Positions 5,254 through 22,727 are shown, counted from the first letter of the stretch. The stretch is 32,000 nt of DNA from an uncultured Erysipelotrichaceae bacterium (GCA_942492995.1 OW818653.1:1650001-1682000), one strand, 5' to 3'. Notes: generated by a model from the letters alone, not told the origin. A program made the numbers and translations.

Positions 5254-6004
5254 TACACACGCCCATCTAGCAGAAGATGAATTTAAGGATGATATTAATG
5301 AAGTTATCCAACGTGCGAAAGAACAGTATGTCGAAAAGATTGTTTTAATTGGATGTGAGATTGATGGGGCTAAGAAGGCATTAGCGTTAGCTCATACCAA
5401 TGATATGTTTGATGTGGCCATTGGCTTTCATCCAGGGGATGTTTTAAGTCATCATGATTATGATTTGATGTTTGAAATGATGAAGGATGAAAAGGTTAAG
5501 TTGATTGGAGAAATTGGCTTAGATTTTTATTGGGATAAAGATCCAGCACATCATCTTTTACAAGAAGAACTCTTTATTAAACAAATCGAATGGGCTAACC
5601 AACTAAATAAGCCTATTAGTATACATACTCGTGATGCGTCAAAACGCACATATGAACTGCTAAAACAATATCCAGTCAATAAAAAAGGGATAATGCATTG
5701 TTTTTCTGGAAGCTTAGAAATGGCTAGAGAATACGTTAAAATGGGATATTATATTTCTCTTGCAGGTCCTGTCACATTCAAAAATGCCCATGTCCCAAAG
5801 GATGTGGCTAAGTATATTGATATAAACTATCTCTTGATTGAGACAGATAGTCCGTATCTTACTCCTCATCCATTTCGTGGTAAACGTAATGAAAGCTTCT
5901 ATGTGGTTGAGACCGCTAAGGTTATTTCGGAATTGAGAAACATATCTCTTGAAGATTTAAGTATTATATTAGAGAAGAATTATCAAAGGCTAATCAATGG
6001 CTAA
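5240..6004 (+). CDS. tatD: TatD-family metal-dependent hydrolase/DNase (YabD-like)
   Basis: N-terminal WIDTHAHL metal-binding motif, GEIGLDFYW, SIHTRDA, GIMHCFSG and ETDSPYLTP. ATG 5240 overlaps the end of the RDD gene. Confidence 0.85.
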   Translation: MRWIDTHAHLAEDEFKDDINEVIQRAKEQYVEKIVLIGCEIDGAKKALALAHTNDMFDVAIGFHPGDVLSHHDYDLMFEMMKDEKVKLIGEIGLDFYWDKDPAHHLLQEELFIKQIEWANQLNKPISIHTRDASKRTYELLKQYPVNKKGIMHCFSGSLEMAREYVKMGYYISLAGPVTFKNAHVPKDVAKYIDINYLLIETDSPYLTPHPFRGKRNESFYVVETAKVISELRNISLEDLSIILEKNYQRLING

Positions 6005-6202: not shown

Positions 6203-6715
6203 ATGAATCTACAACTTGCACGCCTAATGGCAGCTATGATACATTACGACAAAGGAGACCCCAAGCGGATTCAACATCTAATCAAGGTTCATGATCTTTG
6301 TCGGACGATGGGGCTTTTGGAAGGAATGGATGAGACTAGCTTACACATTTTGGAAACTACCGCTATTCTCCATGATATTGGTGCCCACATTAGCGAACAA
6401 AAATATGGAATGAGTACTGGAAAGCATCAGGAACTTGAAGGACCAGCGGAAGCTGAAAAATTAATGCATGAGATTGGTGGTTTCACTGAGGAAACTCAAG
6501 AACGTGTTAAATTTCTGATTGCCCACCATCATACTTATACCAATATTCAGGGGTTGGATTATCAAATCCTCATCGAAGCTGACTTTCTCGTCAATCTCTA
6601 TGAAAGCCCCAACAAATATGGTGCACCTGAGAATTCTCGTCGATTCTTCAAGACCCACACTGGAATTCAAATGCTTGCGGATATGTTTGAAAAACCTGAG
6701 TTATCTGAGTCTTAA
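6203..6715 (+). CDS. HD-domain phosphohydrolase
   Basis: 170-aa ORF with H...HD (AILHDIGAH) and a downstream IAHHH cluster. An AAGGAG RBS lies 7 nt upstream. Confidence 0.7.
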   Translation: MNLQLARLMAAMIHYDKGDPKRIQHLIKVHDLCRTMGLLEGMDETSLHILETTAILHDIGAHISEQKYGMSTGKHQELEGPAEAEKLMHEIGGFTEETQERVKFLIAHHHTYTNIQGLDYQILIEADFLVNLYESPNKYGAPENSRRFFKTHTGIQMLADMFEKPELSES

Positions 6716-6799
6716 TGATATAAATAAAAACGAAAAAAGACTTTAAACTTTAGAGTAACCCTTAATAGTCGTGACATATTAAACTCTACTACTTTTCGT

Positions 6800-8047
6800 T
6801 TAAAATTCCGCAATACTTTCATGGAATACCCATTCTTTCCATTTCAATTTTTCTTGGTAGTAGACTATCGCTTTTTTATAGAATCGATCACCTTCATAAT
6901 ACACAATTAGTTTATTTAACGTAAACTCATAATTCTCATAATCTCGTTTATCTTTAGTAAGCTGGTATAAATCAAGTAATAGAGCTTCATATTTATGACT
7001 AATATCCTTAGTGTTCTCTAAATGTATGATTTCTATCTGTTTCATAAATATTTCATTGATTAAATATTTAAATGATTCAGAATATAGTTTTTCTGAATCA
7101 TTTATTTTACCTAAATAACTTAAACTCGCAATTTTAATAAACAATCCATTCTCAGTTAATGAGTTATCCTTTTCTATTCTAGATAAGAAATTTAGTGATG
7201 ATTCATATTGTCCGTTTAAGAAATCAAACCAAGCTAGATTATAGAGTATTACTTCTTTTTGGTCGTGATTCTTTGTCTTCTCTATTTCTTTTAGAATACG
7301 TAAATAGCTTTGTTTGGCAATCGCATAGTTTTTCATTTTAGCGTGTATTGTGGCGATATGAATTTGGACATTGAGTAGTCGTGCATGATTACGATCTCGT
7401 ATAAATTGATTTTCAGCTTGTTCACAGAAACGTAATGCCTTTAATAACTTGCCATATAGTGAATATAGAATTCCCGAATGATAATAAATTAATCCAGTAC
7501 TAAGACCATGTTGGCCTAAGGATATAGCCTGTTCAATCGTATTAACTGCGTCGATTAATTTACCTTTACGCATCAAGTTAATCGCGTGATAATCGTAGAA
7601 TAGTTGTAAGTATTTGATGTTTAATTCAGGAATTCTTAAGAGTATTTTATTTAAGAATTTTGTCTCATCTTCATTGAATATAACAGATCCAATATATCGA
7701 ATTACCAAGTATATATCGCTATAAACTGAATATTCAATATACTGTTCAGCTTTTTGAATTTTCTTATATATCATTTTACTTTCTGAGATGTAATCAAACG
7801 CAATAGCTTCATAAAAATCATCAATATCATTTATGAACCTCTCACTAATATACATGATAAGTTCATAATCAATTCCAAGAGATTCAAATATTATCTTAAG
7901 ATTATCATCAGTAATTTCAATTAAATCATTTTCATATTTTGAAATTGTTTGAAAACTAAAATTTGTTAAATCTGACACATTTCGTTGAGTCATATTTTTG
8001 TTTAGTCGAGAGTCCTTTAAAAGTTGTGAGATAATTATGTTTTTCAT
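6800..8047 (-). CDS. XRE-type HTH plus TPR-like repeat transcriptional regulator (RNPP-like, putative peptide-sensing)
   Basis: 415 aa. The N-terminal Cro/C1-type HTH reads LNKNMTQRNVSDLTNFSFQTISKYEND. The rest is helical-repeat-rich with recurring A..Y/L..A..Y TPR-like patterns. The gene is very AT-rich and diverges from a small hydrophobic peptide ORF. Confidence 0.6.
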   Translation of the reverse strand: MKNIIISQLLKDSRLNKNMTQRNVSDLTNFSFQTISKYENDLIEITDDNLKIIFESLGIDYELIMYISERFINDIDDFYEAIAFDYISESKMIYKKIQKAEQYIEYSVYSDIYLVIRYIGSVIFNEDETKFLNKILLRIPELNIKYLQLFYDYHAINLMRKGKLIDAVNTIEQAISLGQHGLSTGLIYYHSGILYSLYGKLLKALRFCEQAENQFIRDRNHARLLNVQIHIATIHAKMKNYAIAKQSYLRILKEIEKTKNHDQKEVILYNLAWFDFLNGQYESSLNFLSRIEKDNSLTENGLFIKIASLSYLGKINDSEKLYSESFKYLINEIFMKQIEIIHLENTKDISHKYEALLLDLYQLTKDKRDYENYEFTLNKLIVYYEGDRFYKKAIVYYQEKLKWKEWVFHESIAEF

Positions 8048-8073
8048 TTTGTTTGTCGCTTCAATATACCTAA

Positions 8074-8101
8074 ATTATAGTGCTTAAGCAAGAAAAATCA
8101 A
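8074..8101 (-). promoter_or_regulatory. Putative sigma-A promoter of the HTH-TPR regulator
   Basis: On the minus strand, TTGATT, a 16-nt spacer and TATAAT lie about 27 nt upstream of the ATG. Confidence 0.35.
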
Positions 8102-8107
8102 AGAAAG

Positions 8108-8141
8108 AATAGAATTAGTGGTATGTATTCTATTATATAAT
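8108..8141 (+). promoter_or_regulatory. Dyad element AATAGAAT-N11-ATTCTATT abutting a TATAAT -10 box; candidate regulator box and promoter for the small peptide ORF
   Basis: Perfect 8-bp inverted repeat at 8108-8115 and 8127-8134. TATAAT lies at 8136-8141, with no good -35 hexamer, which suggests an activator-dependent layout. Confidence 0.35.
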
Positions 8142-8161
8142 TTAAGTAAGAGGAGAACTAT

Positions 8162-8227
8162 ATGGAACTAAATGCAATTATTGAGATTATTTTAGTAGCA
8201 TTAGAATCAGTTATACCAAAGATTTAA
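8162..8227 (+). CDS. 21-aa small hydrophobic peptide MELNAIIEIILVALESVIPKI (candidate signalling pro-peptide)
   Basis: An AGGAGA RBS at 8151-8156 lies 5 nt before ATG 8162, and a TATAAT lies about 20 nt upstream. The ORF is divergent from the HTH-TPR regulator. It is too short for the six-frame track. Confidence 0.4.
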   Translation: MELNAIIEIILVALESVIPKI

Positions 8228-8384
8228 TTTGTTTTTTCATTAAACAGTACAATCTCAAATCATAGTTTGTCTTTAGCAATTGTAGATATAATTAATTCTT
8301 TGTGACAATTCTTTTTGGTGATTGTGGTTGTTGAATTCAGGATGGCTTAATTTTATAAATTATTAACATAAGGCAATATTATAA

Positions 8385-8999
8385 ATGATCAATAAATTAA
8401 AGTTTATAAAGAATAATTGTAAAGAAATGTTAATCGTAATTTTATTTTTGATTAATATGTTTTACGTTGGTTATCAAAGCTATGAACTTAATAATGCATC
8501 ATTATTGCAAGTTGAATTATTGCAAGAAGTCGAGAATGAAAAGAAAACGTTAGATTCTACTAAACAAGATATATTTAGTAGAATTATAGAAGATTTGGAA
8601 GTAATAGAACGTGATAATAATTTGGATTATATATTTAAATTATTTGGTTTAGATATTCAAGTTCATTTGGAAGAAGAACTTCCTAATAATATAGTACTTG
8701 CAGTAAATAAAATGACTAGAGAATTTGGTTTTTATTATTTGAGTGATACAATAATTTTTCCATATCAAACATATTACATTGATACTAGAGGGAACCTTGG
8801 TAGTTTAAAAGATTATAACAATTATCTTGATAAAACAAATGGTGTATATATTTATAAATACACTGGTAATGATGAAGATTTCAATTTTCAATGGGCATAT
8901 GCTTATAATAAATCAACCGGTTTCTTAGACAAGTATGAATTTAAATGGTATCCCGCTGATTCAATGGAAATAAGTTTTCTTTCGAATATTGAGGGATAG
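8385..8999 (+). CDS. Membrane-anchored protein of unknown function (paralog A)
   Basis: 204 aa with one N-terminal TM helix (MLIVILFLINMFYVGY). It shares the block LFG..(V/I).V.L...LP......G.YY..D with the next ORF. The start codon is uncertain because the RBS is weak. Confidence 0.5.
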   Translation: MINKLKFIKNNCKEMLIVILFLINMFYVGYQSYELNNASLLQVELLQEVENEKKTLDSTKQDIFSRIIEDLEVIERDNNLDYIFKLFGLDIQVHLEEELPNNIVLAVNKMTREFGFYYLSDTIIFPYQTYYIDTRGNLGSLKDYNNYLDKTNGVYIYKYTGNDEDFNFQWAYAYNKSTGFLDKYEFKWYPADSMEISFLSNIEG

Positions 9000-9001
9000 T
9001 T

Positions 9002-9535
9002 ATGAGAAATAGCAAATTTTTAGTACTCTTTTCGATTTTATTGATTATGATTCTTATTCAAAATATATATTTTAACAAGAAATTTGATCAAATAGATTCG
9101 TCTTTGAATAAAGTAATGTTTGAAATTAGTAACCAAAAACAACAACTTATAGAAGATTACTATTTTAATAGAAAAATGTTTCTTAATGTTCTTAATTATA
9201 ATAAAAACGAAGATTATAAAGTGAATTTATTTGGAAGAACTGTTTATGTGAGACTCAGTAGCAGATTACCTCGCGATATGTACTTAGTTGAGAACTCACT
9301 TAATAATAGTGTTGGAATATATTACATTGATGATAATTCTAGTATCTCATTAAGAAGTTATACATTAGAAATGGTTTCAAATAAATTAACTTTTATTAAA
9401 TCTAAAGATTTCGTTATTAGCACAGAGTTTACATCGAAAGACATAGTTAATATTAGGGATATAAAAAGAATTGAATTAGAAAAGCGGAGAATTGAATTTT
9501 CATTAAGTTTAGAACCAAACAACATAGTTGATTAA
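9002..9535 (+). CDS. Membrane-anchored protein of unknown function (paralog B)
   Basis: 177 aa with an N-terminal TM helix (FLVLFSILLIMILI). It begins 2 nt after paralog A ends and shares the NLFGRTVYVRLSSRLP...VGIYYIDD block with A. Confidence 0.5.
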   Translation: MRNSKFLVLFSILLIMILIQNIYFNKKFDQIDSSLNKVMFEISNQKQQLIEDYYFNRKMFLNVLNYNKNEDYKVNLFGRTVYVRLSSRLPRDMYLVENSLNNSVGIYYIDDNSSISLRSYTLEMVSNKLTFIKSKDFVISTEFTSKDIVNIRDIKRIELEKRRIEFSLSLEPNNIVD

Positions 9536-9574
9536 AATATTCTAATTTATTATAAATATATAAGATTTAATAAT

Positions 9575-9593
9575 GACGCAATGCGTCTTTTTT
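9575..9593 (+). terminator. Rho-independent terminator after paralog B
   Basis: GACGC-aat-GCGTC hairpin followed by TTTTTT. Confidence 0.6.
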
Positions 9594-9602
9594 AATTTAT
9601 GC

Positions 9603-9633
9603 TTGACCTAAAGTTAACTTTAGGTTATATGAT
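9603..9633 (+). promoter_or_regulatory. MerR-type promoter/operator (site 1)
   Basis: TTGACC, a 19-nt spacer, then TATGAT. The spacer carries the perfect 20-bp palindrome ACCTAAAGTTAACTTTAGGT (9606-9625). A 19-bp spacer with a dyad is the classic MerR-family architecture. Confidence 0.6.
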
Positions 9634-9664
9634 ACGATTATATAAAAGAGAAAAGGAGATTCAC

Positions 9665-10051
9665 ATGACATACTCAATTGGTGAGGTTTCAAAAAAGACA
9701 GGTTTAACAGTCCCGACCTTACGATTTTATGATAAAGAAGGATTGATCCCAAACATCAATCGTAAAGAGAATGGACTACGTAATTTTACTGAGAGTGATT
9801 TGGGTACGATTAATATCGTCACATGCATAAAAGGAGCAGGTGCTTCTTTAAAAGAAATCAAACATTATATGGATTTATGCCAAATGGGAGATTCGACATT
9901 AGAGGATCGTAAACAATTCTTCATGGATAAGAAGAAAGACATTGAAGAACAGATGAACAAGCTTAATGAGATACTAGCGACTATCGAACACAAGATTCAT
10001 TACTATGAAACTGCGTTAGAAGCTGGTACAGAAAAGATTCATAAGAAATAA
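9665..10051 (+). CDS. MerR-family transcriptional regulator (AdhR/NmlR-like)
   Basis: MTYSIGEVSKKTGLTVPTLRFYDKEGLI is a MerR HTH. A C-terminal coiled-coil dimerisation helix is present, as is Cys54 in the IVTCIKGAG context. An AAGGAG RBS precedes ATG 9665; the track ORF is extended to 9599. Confidence 0.8.
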   Translation: MTYSIGEVSKKTGLTVPTLRFYDKEGLIPNINRKENGLRNFTESDLGTINIVTCIKGAGASLKEIKHYMDLCQMGDSTLEDRKQFFMDKKKDIEEQMNKLNEILATIEHKIHYYETALEAGTEKIHKK

Positions 10052-19998: not shown

Positions 19999-21354
19999 AT
20001 GGGTAATAAACATTTAGAAGGTGAGTCAAACTTAATTGAATATAAGCTAACTTTGCCTGAAGATAATACAAAGTGGTTAAAGAGTGTCGTATCTTTTAGT
20101 AATACTTCTGGGGGGAGATTGATCGTAGGTATTGAAGACTCAACATTGAAGGTAGTTGGAATTCAAGATGAAAGATCTAAAATAGAACAAAGAATAGTTG
20201 AATCAATACATAGCAATATTGAACCTAGACCAATAATCGATATAAGTTTTGAAAATTATGAAGATAAAGACATAGTAATAATTCAAGTAGCCAAAGGAAA
20301 TGAAACTCCATATTATATAAAAAAGGAGGGCATAGAGGAAGGGTGCTATGTTAGGTTTGGATCAACTGATCAAAAAGCAACAAATAGTCAAAGACTTGAA
20401 CTAAGACTTAATAGAAATAATGAAACATTTACAAGCGAAATCTATAATAAGAATGCTAAATTAGTTAAAAGAGATGATGCTGAGATATCAAAATTCCTTA
20501 GTTTTATAAATACTCAAATTAAAAGTGGCAAGAGTTTGAATGAAAATAAACTTTTGGAATGGAAGTTGCTTAGAAATGAATTTGATAATATTTATGCGAC
20601 TAACGGACTGATGTTATTAACAGAAAATCCATTCAGTCAAAGTTATATAAAAATAGGTGTGTTCAAAGGGGTAACAAAGTCTGAAATAAAGAAAGACTAT
20701 GTTATAAATGGCTCGATAATTGCACAATATTTTGAAGCGATGAAAGTTTTACTTAACGAATTGGAAGATGGTTATTCAATTGCTACAATTCGAGAAATGA
20801 AATATAAAGTTCCAGAAATAGCCATTAGAGAAATTTTAGCTAATGCAATAATTCATAGAAGTTATATAGATGAACAAACTATTAGAATTAGCATTTTTGA
20901 TAATAGAATAGAAATATATTCGCCAGGAACATTATTTGATGGTCTGCAAATAGAAGATGCTATAAATGGTCGTTCCAAACTTAGGAATCCTAATATAAGT
21001 GAAGTTTTCTATCATTTAGGTTTGATAGAGAAATGGGGATCAGGAATTCAAAGAGCGAATGAAGCATTGAGTAAAGAAAATTTTCTTCCTTTAATCTTCG
21101 AAGTCAATAATATACACGGGGTTAATGTTATTATTAAATTTGAAAAAATTGTAAATGAAGTTAATGAAAGTATGATAAATGTCGAAAACTATTTAGACTT
21201 TAAATCTACATTCACACGTAAAGATCTGGAGAGTGATTTAAATATCACTCAAGATCAAGCTAGATACTTGGTTGAAAAGTGGGTAAATAAAGGCAAAATA
21301 GTAAAAATAGGTGGAAGTTCAAAATCTAAGTATAGTGTAAACAAAATAAATTAA
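19999..21354 (+). CDS. AlbA_2 (Schlafen-like) domain protein with a C-terminal HATPase_c_4/RecG-C-like ATP-binding domain and wHTH
   Basis: N-terminus ESNLIEYKLTLPEDN...SFSNTSGGRLIVGIED...ETPYYIKK...YVRFGSTD is an AlbA_2-type domain. REILANAIIHRSY...IEIYSPGTL...RNPNISEVFYHLGLIEKWGSGIQR is the HATPase_c_4-type block. The tail looks like a wHTH. The gene is very AT-rich. Confidence 0.75.
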   Translation: MGNKHLEGESNLIEYKLTLPEDNTKWLKSVVSFSNTSGGRLIVGIEDSTLKVVGIQDERSKIEQRIVESIHSNIEPRPIIDISFENYEDKDIVIIQVAKGNETPYYIKKEGIEEGCYVRFGSTDQKATNSQRLELRLNRNNETFTSEIYNKNAKLVKRDDAEISKFLSFINTQIKSGKSLNENKLLEWKLLRNEFDNIYATNGLMLLTENPFSQSYIKIGVFKGVTKSEIKKDYVINGSIIAQYFEAMKVLLNELEDGYSIATIREMKYKVPEIAIREILANAIIHRSYIDEQTIRISIFDNRIEIYSPGTLFDGLQIEDAINGRSKLRNPNISEVFYHLGLIEKWGSGIQRANEALSKENFLPLIFEVNNIHGVNVIIKFEKIVNEVNESMINVENYLDFKSTFTRKDLESDLNITQDQARYLVEKWVNKGKIVKIGGSSKSKYSVNKIN

Positions 21355-21424
21355 TGTATTAAATATGAAATTCGAATTCATTAAACATTTTAGAAAATCT
21401 TTAGTTATAATTGTCAAATAATAG

Positions 21425-21463
21425 AAATAACGCCTTGAACATAAATCAATGCGTTATTTTTTT
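21425..21463 (+). terminator. Rho-independent terminator after the AlbA_2 gene
   Basis: AAATAACGC-(17 nt)-GCGTTATTT followed by TTTT. Confidence 0.5.
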
Positions 21464-21581
21464 ATGATTTAACATATCGTTAAACTATAATAAGAAACAT
21501 ATTATTAATTCGTTATTATAGTATAGATTGATAAAATATAATAAGAAGATATAATAAAGTTAATAATGCGAGGAACTAGGT

Positions 21582-22727
21582 ATGATAAATCGAGCAGGGC
21601 AAACCATAAAGAATCTATCAGGGGCATCTACATATACTTCTTATCAACCTAATCCTTTGATGGATGATTTAGATATCCATATGGATAATGAGATGATAGA
21701 GCTATTAGTAAAGGCAAATAGGGAGATAGCGGTATTAGAACGTATCTCAAGTTACATACCTAATATTGATTTATTCATCACAATGTATTTACGTAAAGAA
21801 GCGCTTATGTCTTCACAAATAGAAGGAACACAGGCAACACTTGAAGATATTTTAGATCCAAGTATTGTCGAAAATTCTAATTTAGAAATAGTAGATGTTG
21901 TTAATGTGGTGAAGGCAACACATTTTTCGATGAATCGATTAAATGAATTACCTTTATGTAATCGACTCATAAAAGAAACGCATTCTATCCTTATGGATGG
22001 GATAAGAGGTGGGGATAAGAGTCCTGGAGAGTTTCGACTTTCGCAGAATTGGTTAGGTGGATTTGGGAGTACGTTAAAGACTGCACAATATATTCCACCT
22101 AATGTACAAGATATGTTAAATGGAATGTCAGATTTAGAGAAATATATGAATACAGAAAGTAGTGTGGATCCATTAATCAGAGCTGGATTAATACATTACC
22201 AATTTGAAACAATTCATCCTTTTTTAGATGGTAATGGAAGAATCGGAAGATTGTTAATTCAACTATACTTAACGCAAACTAAAACGTTAGTATTACCTTC
22301 CTTAAGTATTTCGTATTATTTGAAGAGATATCGCTCGGAATACTATGATCGATTAACTGATGTACGACGTACAGGGCAGTATGAACAATGGCTTAAATTC
22401 TTTTTAAGAGCGGTGTATGAATCTGCGGAAAGTGCAAATTTAACGATTAAACAAATGATGTTTCTGAACGAAATTAATACTGAAGTTATTCTATCATTTG
22501 GACGTATCTCATATACTGGATTAAAGTTACTTAGATATATAGAAGAGAATCCTATTGTTGAAGTTAGAAAGACTTCTATAGATTTAGGTTTAACATTTGC
22601 GACTGTATCTAAATGTGTTGATCTATTTGTTAAACACGGAATTCTAATTCAATATAAAGGCCATAAAAGAAATCGATTGTTTGCCTATGATGCGTATTTA
22701 CAATTATTAAGAGAAGGAACGGAGTAG
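21582..22727 (+). CDS. Fic-family protein (class II, N-terminal inhibitory helix, C-terminal wHTH); putative AMP/NMP-transferase
   Basis: Fic active-site motif HPFLDGNGRIGR. N-terminal (S/T)xxxE(G/N) inhibitory motif in MSSQIEGT. The C-terminal segment LGLTFATVSKCVDLFVKHGIL is wHTH-like. Confidence 0.85.
   Translation: MINRAGQTIKNLSGASTYTSYQPNPLMDDLDIHMDNEMIELLVKANREIAVLERISSYIPNIDLFITMYLRKEALMSSQIEGTQATLEDILDPSIVENSNLEIVDVVNVVKATHFSMNRLNELPLCNRLIKETHSILMDGIRGGDKSPGEFRLSQNWLGGFGSTLKTAQYIPPNVQDMLNGMSDLEKYMNTESSVDPLIRAGLIHYQFETIHPFLDGNGRIGRLLIQLYLTQTKTLVLPSLSISYYLKRYRSEYYDRLTDVRRTGQYEQWLKFFLRAVYESAESANLTIKQMMFLNEINTEVILSFGRISYTGLKLLRYIEENPIVEVRKTSIDLGLTFATVSKCVDLFVKHGILIQYKGHKRNRLFAYDAYLQLLREGTE

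Follow-up and report, generated by a model that had tools for sequence, protein, structure and literature searches.

An uncultured Erysipelotrichaceae bacterium appears to carry a peptide quorum-sensing system of the RRNPP type. We analysed one 32,000-nucleotide (nt) stretch of its genome (GCA_942492995.1 OW818653.1:1650001-1682000, hereafter the window), in which a regulator of 415 amino acids (aa) lies back to back with a 21-codon open reading frame (ORF) followed by two genes for membrane proteins. We put at roughly 0.7 the probability that these genes form an RRNPP-type quorum-sensing module, with a long NprR/Rap-like receptor made of tetratricopeptide repeats (TPRs) and a divergent pheromone gene. 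The module is best described as a subfamily-level variation on the RRNPP theme: an NprR/Rap-like receptor, an acidic, signal-less pro-peptide of 19-21 aa with a conserved C-terminal [D/E]xxxP[K/R]x, and exchangeable output genes. A first-pass annotation of the window had proposed a layout like that of Rgg/SHP circuits around a receptor of NprR/AimR size, and this combination matches the data.

The proposed mechanism is a positive-feedback circuit. The divergent gene would encode a short hydrophobic pro-peptide without a signal sequence, which after export would be trimmed to its C-terminal seven or eight residues, with the pattern [D/E]xx[I/L/Y]P[K/R][I/F/V] and in the window (L)ESVIPKI. The mature peptide would be re-imported and bound in the TPR groove, and the peptide-bound receptor would act at an inverted repeat with which the -35 region of the peptide promoter overlaps. 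The result would be expression of the peptide gene itself, closing the loop, and of the two co-transcribed membrane-protein genes, up to a terminator at 9575. Export, the processing site, re-import, peptide binding, activation as opposed to de-repression, the operator and co-transcription of the targets are all steps that we infer.

The regulator has the predicted architecture of a long-TPR peptide receptor. Encoded on the minus strand at 6800-8047, it matches two Pfam domains above cut-off, HTH_3 at residues 10-62 (E 4e-9) and TPR_12 at residues 225-289 (E 4e-8). An alignment of 11 family sequences (A1) served as the source of both a profile and an AlphaFold2 (AF2) model. The model is all-helical, with a mean predicted local distance difference test score (pLDDT) of 87.7, and comprises an XRE-type helix-turn-helix (HTH; ~residues 6-57), three linker helices and ~15 TPR-type helices. 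Its top Foldseek match in the PDB was Rap of phage Phi3T (E 7e-8), followed by RapF, NprR in its apo and NprX-bound forms, RapI and the Rap-peptide complex 4gyo, with TM-scores normalised to the target of 0.59-0.72. Rap and NprR matched at probability 1.00, as did the lower-ranked AimR and PlcR, and none of the top 50 Foldseek PDB matches was a structure of Rgg, ComR or PrgX. Searching the PDB with the A1 profile, we found NprR (5dbk, 4gpk) to be the sole family matched over all of the body outside the HTH (E 3.5e-6), with profile positions 73-411 aligned to residues 9-359 of the chain. No Rgg model in Pfam or NCBIfam matched the regulator. At 415 aa it falls within the 250-500 aa range of the cytoplasmic RRNPP(A) receptors and shares their TPR superhelix; with its HTH it would be both receptor and transcription factor.

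Some of the residues that contact the peptide in NprR are conserved in the regulator family. We took the NprX-contacting residues of NprR from Zouhir et al. 2013 (PMC3763537) and mapped them through a hidden Markov model alignment to 5dbk_A, where adding 59 to the chain numbering reproduces Y193/N194, H201, S274/N275 and N306. [quoted passage not shown] The peptide contacts Asn306, likewise backbone-binding, and Tyr193 correspond to N300 and Y189, and all three positions are invariant in A1. Modelled fold and hallmark residue together place the regulator in the RRNPP superfamily, closest to the NprR/Rap branch; it is no NprR orthologue. The original suggestion of an RNPP-like HTH-TPR regulator is borne out by the Foldseek matches, the NprR profile match and the invariant Asn.

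The close regulator family is a rare one: among 5.8 billion proteins searched, only 11 belonged to it. An exhaustive profile search over 1.84 billion cluster representatives gave 12 clusters below 1e-30, along with a wider halo of 193 clusters below 1e-10, the latter mostly full-length at ~400-420 aa. As a separate observation, the regulator coding sequence of the window contains, in a variable loop region, a perfect palindrome with a 14-bp stem (TAAATGATTCAGAA...TTCTGAATCATTTA, 7069-7104), which scored as terminator-like on both strands; an exact copy occurs in none of the 30 homologous loci that we fetched.

A short gene is conserved opposite the receptor gene. In the window it occupies 8162-8227 on the plus strand and would encode the 21-aa pro-peptide MELNAIIEIILVALESVIPKI, as indicated by the ORF map and comparative conservation; a Shine-Dalgarno (SD) sequence, GAGGAG, stands at 8150-8155, 6 nt 5' of its ATG. 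We fetched the contigs of receptor homologues (the 30 loci) and scanned the divergent upstream region of each for small ORFs. Every clade that retains the downstream genes has one, of 19-22 codons (four receptor clades, >12 loci). It lies on the strand opposite the receptor gene, starting ~100 nt from the receptor start in relatives and 114 nt in the window, and has a strong SD, which reads GGGGGAG, GGGAGG or GGTGGG in the homologous loci. All the small ORFs end in [D/E]-x-x-[I/L/Y]-P-[K/R]-[I/F/V]. Receptors are 35-49% identical between clades and 35-41% identical to that of the window; the divergent small ORF with a good ribosome-binding site that first drew attention is conserved beside homologous regulators of 35-85% identity.

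Codon-position patterns mark the small ORF as coding. Within clades, differences at codon positions 1/2/3 sum to 12/6/32 over five illustrative pairs. The window and L016 differ by 1/1/3, comprising four synonymous changes and one non-synonymous change; the corresponding values are 1/0/5 for L013 and L025, 2/0/6 for L025 and L026, and 4/1/10 for L006 and L010. Just 3' of the stop codon, by contrast, the DNA shows little conservation and includes an indel of 94 nt. Because changes favour third positions while the sequence beyond the stop is poorly conserved, we read the small ORF as a translated gene under purifying selection, and a chance ORF is for practical purposes excluded by this pattern. 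No gene caller called it in any related contig; peptide genes of ~20 codons without a signal sequence escape gene callers and strict RRNPP detection.

We also considered, and rejected, a peptide gene placed like nprX, 3' of the regulator. Only 84 nt separate the regulator stop from a convergent HD-domain gene, and the one ORF that overlaps this interval (6712-6822) has no counterpart in relatives; in L001, TatD directly follows the regulator.

Peptide similarity tracks receptor phylogeny. In clade A, to which the window belongs, the peptide is MELTAIIEIILVALESVIPKI in L016-L018 and MTNLLEIIIIILESVLPKI, an intact 19 codons, in L030. Clade B (L002-L005, L011, L024) has MEELNFIYWLISLFDNKYPKI, clade C (L013, L015, L025, L026, L028) has MGDL[ND]LL[LI]WL[IM]SLFD[YN]KIPR[VI], and these two sister clades both show WLxSLFDxKxP. 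Clade D comprises MDNLYQFIIDMFDLVLPKF (L006), MIELYHLIIELFDMVLPKF (L010), MIELYYLIIDLFDMVLPKF (L014) and MIVFYCCVIDLFDTVLPKF (L012).

Three further observations concern individual loci. L009, otherwise identical to L030 in this region, has one A fewer in the small ORF, which is frameshifted; this could be an assembly error or a recent inactivation. OY781039.1, the chromosome of an Erysipelotrichaceae metagenome-assembled genome (MAG), bears both L012 and L013, two systems of different clades (MIVFYCCVIDLFDTVLPKF and MGDLDLLLWLISLFDYKIPRV), which fits the RRNPP habit of paralogues. L002 and L011 have identical peptide DNA and a downstream secreted protein that is 98% identical, with regulators just 71% identical. 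Such divergent regulators beside identical peptide DNA are a sign of recombination whose breakpoint lies close to the start of the regulator.

The peptides form a non-Sec class with a conserved C-terminal end. With 19-21 residues and acidic N-termini, beginning M-E/D/G, they are on sequence grounds incompatible with the Sec pro-peptides known from NprX, Phr, PapR or AimP. The Sec signal of canonical RRNPP pro-peptides is absent here, as it is from the accepted RRNPP members SHP and PrgQ (PMC10075063), and its lack would therefore mark a non-canonical subtype rather than exclusion from the superfamily. At the other end of the peptide, the acidic residue at C-terminal position -7 is conserved, and each of the final three residues keeps to one type. 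If SHP, PrgQ/iCF10 and ComS/XIP are taken as a guide, the mature pheromone would be the C-terminal hepta- or octapeptide, (L)ESVIPKI in the window.

The intergenic region contains conserved promoter elements for both directions. On the minus strand, a promoter-like site for the regulator, TTGATT-16 nt-TATAAT, lies at 8074-8101 by consensus match only (10/12); an intergenic alignment shows its -10 element conserved in all homologous loci. On the plus strand, the -10 box of the peptide and target genes, TATAAT at 8136-8141, is likewise conserved in position in all loci, together with TAGA(C/A)A at a fixed distance 5' of it. A scan found no acceptable -35 hexamer 16-18 nt 5' of this box and no full sigma-70 match here on the plus strand. 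A conserved -10 box lacking a usable -35 hexamer suggests that the peptide promoter is activator-dependent. Between the divergent promoters, overlapping the -35 region of the peptide promoter, is the inverted repeat AATAGAAT-N11-ATTCTATT (8108-8134, no strand assigned). The repeat is perfect, and both of its arms are unchanged in the close relative L016, in which 4 of the 11 spacer bases differ.

The start of the regulator transcript varies among clades. In clades B-D (L002, L006, L010-L015) the regulator ATG falls only ~12 nt after its -10 box, for which reason the mRNA is probably leaderless. In clade A the corresponding ATG is ATT (window 8048-8066), and the ORF begins six codons downstream without a recognisable SD.

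The simplest reading of the plus strand is one transcript, from ~8148 to the terminator at 9575. We rejected the idea that an attenuator or a terminator separates the small ORF from the first target gene: the interval, which includes the 94-nt indel and is poorly conserved, has no terminator-like site and a folding z of +0.76. A single transcript would follow from the absence of a terminator or RNA structure after the peptide gene and from the abutting or overlapping arrangement of the two target genes. A terminator scan places the intrinsic terminator, a GC-rich hairpin GACGCAATGCGTC with a T-run, on the plus strand at 9575-9597 (hairpin and T-run from 9575-9587 on).

Several findings weigh against an RRNPP-type quorum-sensing system. 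Arg126 of the NprR KRD motif binds the peptide Asp and the C-terminal carboxylate and is essential for activation (PMC3763537); the KRD motif falls in an insertion relative to our family profile, which has no aligned Arg. Two further NprR peptide contacts, Asn194 and Glu241, are replaced by His190 (an invariant His in A1) and Lys237, and the binding chemistry must accordingly differ from that of NprR. The inverted repeat is unique in the window, yet ~1.4 such matches are expected by chance, so that it is not significant alone, and the intergenic alignment reveals no recognisable common palindrome across the other clades; for both reasons it is a candidate operator only. Lacking significance, a second copy in the window and a palindrome shared across clades, it was rejected as a regulon marker. 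Two homologues, L007 (58% identical) and L029 (27%), have no peptide of the motif type beside the receptor, and two syntenic relatives of the window, L001 and L008, have an intact receptor without an adjacent peptide gene. None of 10 peptide variants has K or R within its first 8 residues, and their net charge is -2 to 0. Finally, Pfam, NCBIfam and neighbour annotation identify no exporter, protease or Opp genes in the window.

The points on export would also suit a cell-autonomous pair. Here the peptide would be an intracellular co-factor or anti-repressor of the TPR regulator, and the circuit a bistable feedback switch rather than a density sensor. A peptide of 19-21 aa with an acidic N-terminus and no recognisable export signal, encoded in a window without exporter or Opp genes, speaks for such a switch, and the evidence for receptor-peptide pairing fits it equally well. 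We nevertheless consider it unlikely. Characterised RRNPP peptides all act from outside the cell, the conserved acid at -7 resembles a processing or maturation mark of the SHP type, and the orphan receptors of L001 and L008 are easier to explain with a signal that comes from other cells. Non-Sec communication peptides, exported by PptAB or leaderless, do exist; they go with the five-TPR PrgX-TraA-ComR-Rgg clade of Lactobacillales, the secretory process of the leaderless ones being yet uncharacterised, and the SEC translocon is the ancestral route (Moi et al. 2025, PMC12700828).

The genes downstream of the peptide encode extracytoplasmic proteins and differ between loci. In the window, target gene 1 (8385-8999, plus strand) encodes 204 aa and target gene 2 (9002-9535, plus strand) 177 aa. 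They had been taken for paralogous single-pass membrane proteins, and each indeed has one N-terminal hydrophobic segment by hydrophobicity analysis; the paralogy is real but distant (BLASTP, 30% identity over 67 aa, E 4e-8). The family also proved as unfamiliar as it had first seemed, with no match in Pfam, NCBIfam, PHROG, PADLOC or a PDB profile search. It is an ORFan family, restricted to 6 clusters from the same narrow lineage in a profile search of 5.8 billion proteins, and an AF2 model from a 4-sequence alignment was unusable (pLDDT 48). Homologues of gene 1, at 47-80% identity, occupy the same place after the small ORF, and a homologue of gene 2, at 45% identity, follows a 205-aa gene in L030. 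The start and stop of the tandem genes are adjacent in the window and overlap in relatives. Because three lineages have kept the tandem pair, we take the two targets to be real genes.

Elsewhere this cargo is interrupted or replaced. In L030 and L009 the peptide gene and the tandem pair are separated by an inserted gene for a secreted protein of 246 aa, which matches Peptidase_C39_2 below threshold. The peptide gene is always followed by a gene for a secreted or membrane-anchored protein. In clades B-D the protein after the peptide has a near-invariant signal peptide, MKxLKSLFVLLFFISLASPVxA, and mature parts that are mutually unrelated (cassette loci L002, L006, L010, L012-L014, L025, L026, L028); the L026 and L028 proteins do not differ before the cleavage site and diverge after it. 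The other secreted proteins of distant loci had no Pfam, PHROG or PDB match. Small membrane proteins, or proteins with a Zn-ribbon and a membrane segment, are usually next in these clades. L002 has a second such cassette nearby, consisting of a DUF2599 protein and a 146-aa membrane protein. The clade B-D cassettes look like exchangeable secreted effectors with immunity-like partners. Across loci, the comparison points to the receptor-peptide pair as the constant part and to the extracytoplasmic cargo as the exchangeable part, and this would make the peptide a partner of the receptor rather than of the cargo. It also suggests an output that is a secreted or surface function, which might, speculatively, be competitive or adhesive.

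The same arrangement bears on whether the small ORF could instead be the first structural gene of the operon. Its product might then be, for example, a micro-protein of the membrane, a small toxin, or a partner of the secreted proteins that resembles a bacteriocin or a chaperone, and the regulator would respond to a different ligand. The hydrophobicity of the peptide is indeed high, with a grand average of hydropathy of 1.5; its gene always precedes those for secreted or membrane proteins, and the clade B-D cassettes resemble polymorphic secreted proteins accompanied by small membrane proteins. We regard this explanation as improbable, somewhat more so than the cell-autonomous switch, because the peptide keeps its link to the receptor even where unrelated genes have replaced those downstream, and because peptide type tracks receptor clade. 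At 19-21 aa, with a charged, conserved P-K/R-x end, the peptide is also short for a membrane-spanning micro-protein. Nor does it resemble cationic leaderless bacteriocins, which are typically 30-50 aa. Least tenable is a chance frame beside a regulator that is an ordinary XRE repressor and whose TPR tail is generic: short ORFs are frequent in AT-rich DNA and gene callers left this one unannotated in related contigs, but comparative data effectively refute the idea, since >12 loci across such divergent receptors agree in the placement and orientation of the ORF, its SD, its length and its C-terminal motif, substitutions are biased to third codon positions, and the TPR body is specifically Rap/NprR-like with the invariant RNPP asparagine.

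As an RRNPP-type system, the module combines features of known systems that are otherwise found apart. Its receptor resembles NprR of the B. cereus group, a member of the nine-TPR clan NprR, Rap, QssR, in size (415 against 423 aa) and in architecture: an XRE HTH, a helical linker and a long nine-TPR-type superhelix, ~420 aa in all. The two also differ. Identity to NprR is just ~14-16%, KRD/Arg126 is without an equivalent, and the host lineage is Erysipelotrichaceae-type rather than Bacillaceae. The peptide gene differs as well, being divergent and encoding a signal-less peptide of 19-21 aa, with conservation at the C-terminus. By comparison, nprX is located downstream of its receptor gene in the same orientation; its product is a 43-aa pro-peptide that is exported by Sec and has an internal active part.

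The peptide side instead recalls Rgg/SHP (group I, with divergent shp), ComR/ComS of streptococci and PrgX/PrgQ of enterococci. These share with the window a divergent, very short hydrophobic peptide gene with a common intergenic region, placed first in the regulated transcript and lacking a Sec signal. SHP, PrgQ, ComS and SIP are examples of PptAB-exported or leaderless peptides. A conserved D/E is present at position -7, and the active part may, as in the Rgg/SHP type, consist of the C-terminal 7-9 residues that start there. Unlike Rgg, which has ~285 aa and joins an HTH to a five-repeat TPR-like domain, the receptor has 415 aa and is not Rgg-like, and whereas SHP and PrgQ pro-peptides start with basic residues, the pro-peptides here are acidic, beginning M-E/D/G, with no basic N-terminus.

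Arbitrium (AimR-AimP) and the Rap-Phr systems of phages and plasmids offer TPR receptors of similar length, and Phi3T Rap and AimR are among the structural matches. The window differs in that nothing around the module points to a phage or plasmid. Both AimP and Phr leave the cell through Sec, and their genes lie downstream of the receptor gene. A further difference is the HTH of the window receptor, which Rap proteins lack (PMC9765709).

The module appears to be a presence/absence polymorphism that leaves "orphan" receptors behind. L001 and L008 are metagenomic contigs syntenic with window 8048-9598 (at 5736-6000 and 1779-2133, respectively), in the order MerR, regulator, TatD. Their regulators are 83-85% identical to that of the window, and they retain an SD remnant and the same terminator hairpin; they have neither the peptide gene nor the two target genes, and the HD gene too is absent. 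Deletion in these relatives explains the polymorphism equally well as acquisition does. The horizontal acquisition proposed by the first-pass annotation accordingly stands only in part: low GC content and the variable presence of the peptide and target genes in syntenic relatives are compatible with it, while no mobility genes are present and the regulator persists in those relatives. The HD-domain gene (6203-6715), between TatD and the regulator, has normal GC content and is missing from the syntenic L001, and for these reasons would be an indel separate from the AT-rich module.

The module is chromosomal, beside a gidB-parAB-mnmE cluster, and is neither phage nor plasmid. This follows from its flanking genes, which are housekeeping or accessory chromosomal: gidB, a parB-like gene, parA, parB, mnmE, and genes for an RDD protein, TatD and the HD protein on one side, and a MerR/NmlR-like regulator, DUF3737, PatB C-S lyase, a cyclophilin-like protein, an MFS transporter and Fe-ADH on the other. 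PADLOC and PHROG searches ruled out a phage or defence context for the module. GC content is 25-27% over ~7000-10000 against 33-37% on either side, within the 32-kb window. The ORF map, the sequence and the GC profile confirm all the ORFs, the ribosome-binding site, the terminator and the AT-richness reported at first pass. A second low-GC stretch of the window (19999-22727, 27-29%) encodes a 451-aa Schlafen AlbA_2/HATPase_c_4 protein, together with a Fic protein for which the PADLOC SoFic model gives a match (E 2.5e-107), and is probably a small defence islet.

Catalogues of RRNPP systems, as far as searched, do not list this pairing. Named genomes with receptor homologues are exclusively Erysipelotrichaceae MAGs. 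In the literature that we searched, no paper joins RRNPP, or quorum sensing and TPR, with Erysipelotrichaceae. The portions of the RRNPP_detector survey tables that were covered contain no Erysipelotrichaceae entry, and within the covered portions of the structural-phylogeny paper's tables the only such entry found is a five-TPR, 314-aa Erysipelothrix candidate. Neither the peptide motifs nor any nine-TPR system of Erysipelotrichaceae turned up in the covered portions of the two catalogue sets, in which absence is no proof. We likewise did not find the combination of this receptor type with this peptide type in the parts of the catalogues available to us.

The Erysipelotrichaceae-type system departs from a rule that links receptor to peptide. 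In known surveys, non-Sec short hydrophobic pheromones belong to the five-TPR Rgg/ComR/PrgX clade and Sec pro-peptides to the nine-TPR NprR/Rap/AimR clans (PMC12700828). Our pro-peptides are acidic and non-basic, which would argue for a route of export and maturation different from Sec and from that of known PptAB/Eep substrates. We tentatively propose, at somewhat under even odds, that signal-less SHP-like pheromones arose independently in the long-TPR NprR/Rap branch outside Lactobacillales. They would use a non-Sec, non-PptAB/Eep route and drive interchangeable secreted or surface cassettes, possibly for competition or adhesion and with small membrane "immunity-like" partners, in uncultured gut-type Erysipelotrichaceae. 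The system offers a compact pair of receptor and predicted heptapeptide, four naturally occurring pherotype clades in which specificity could be studied, and natural "orphan receptor" strains. It also provides a handle on ORFan secreted and membrane proteins with a possible role in how uncultured gut Bacillota behave socially.

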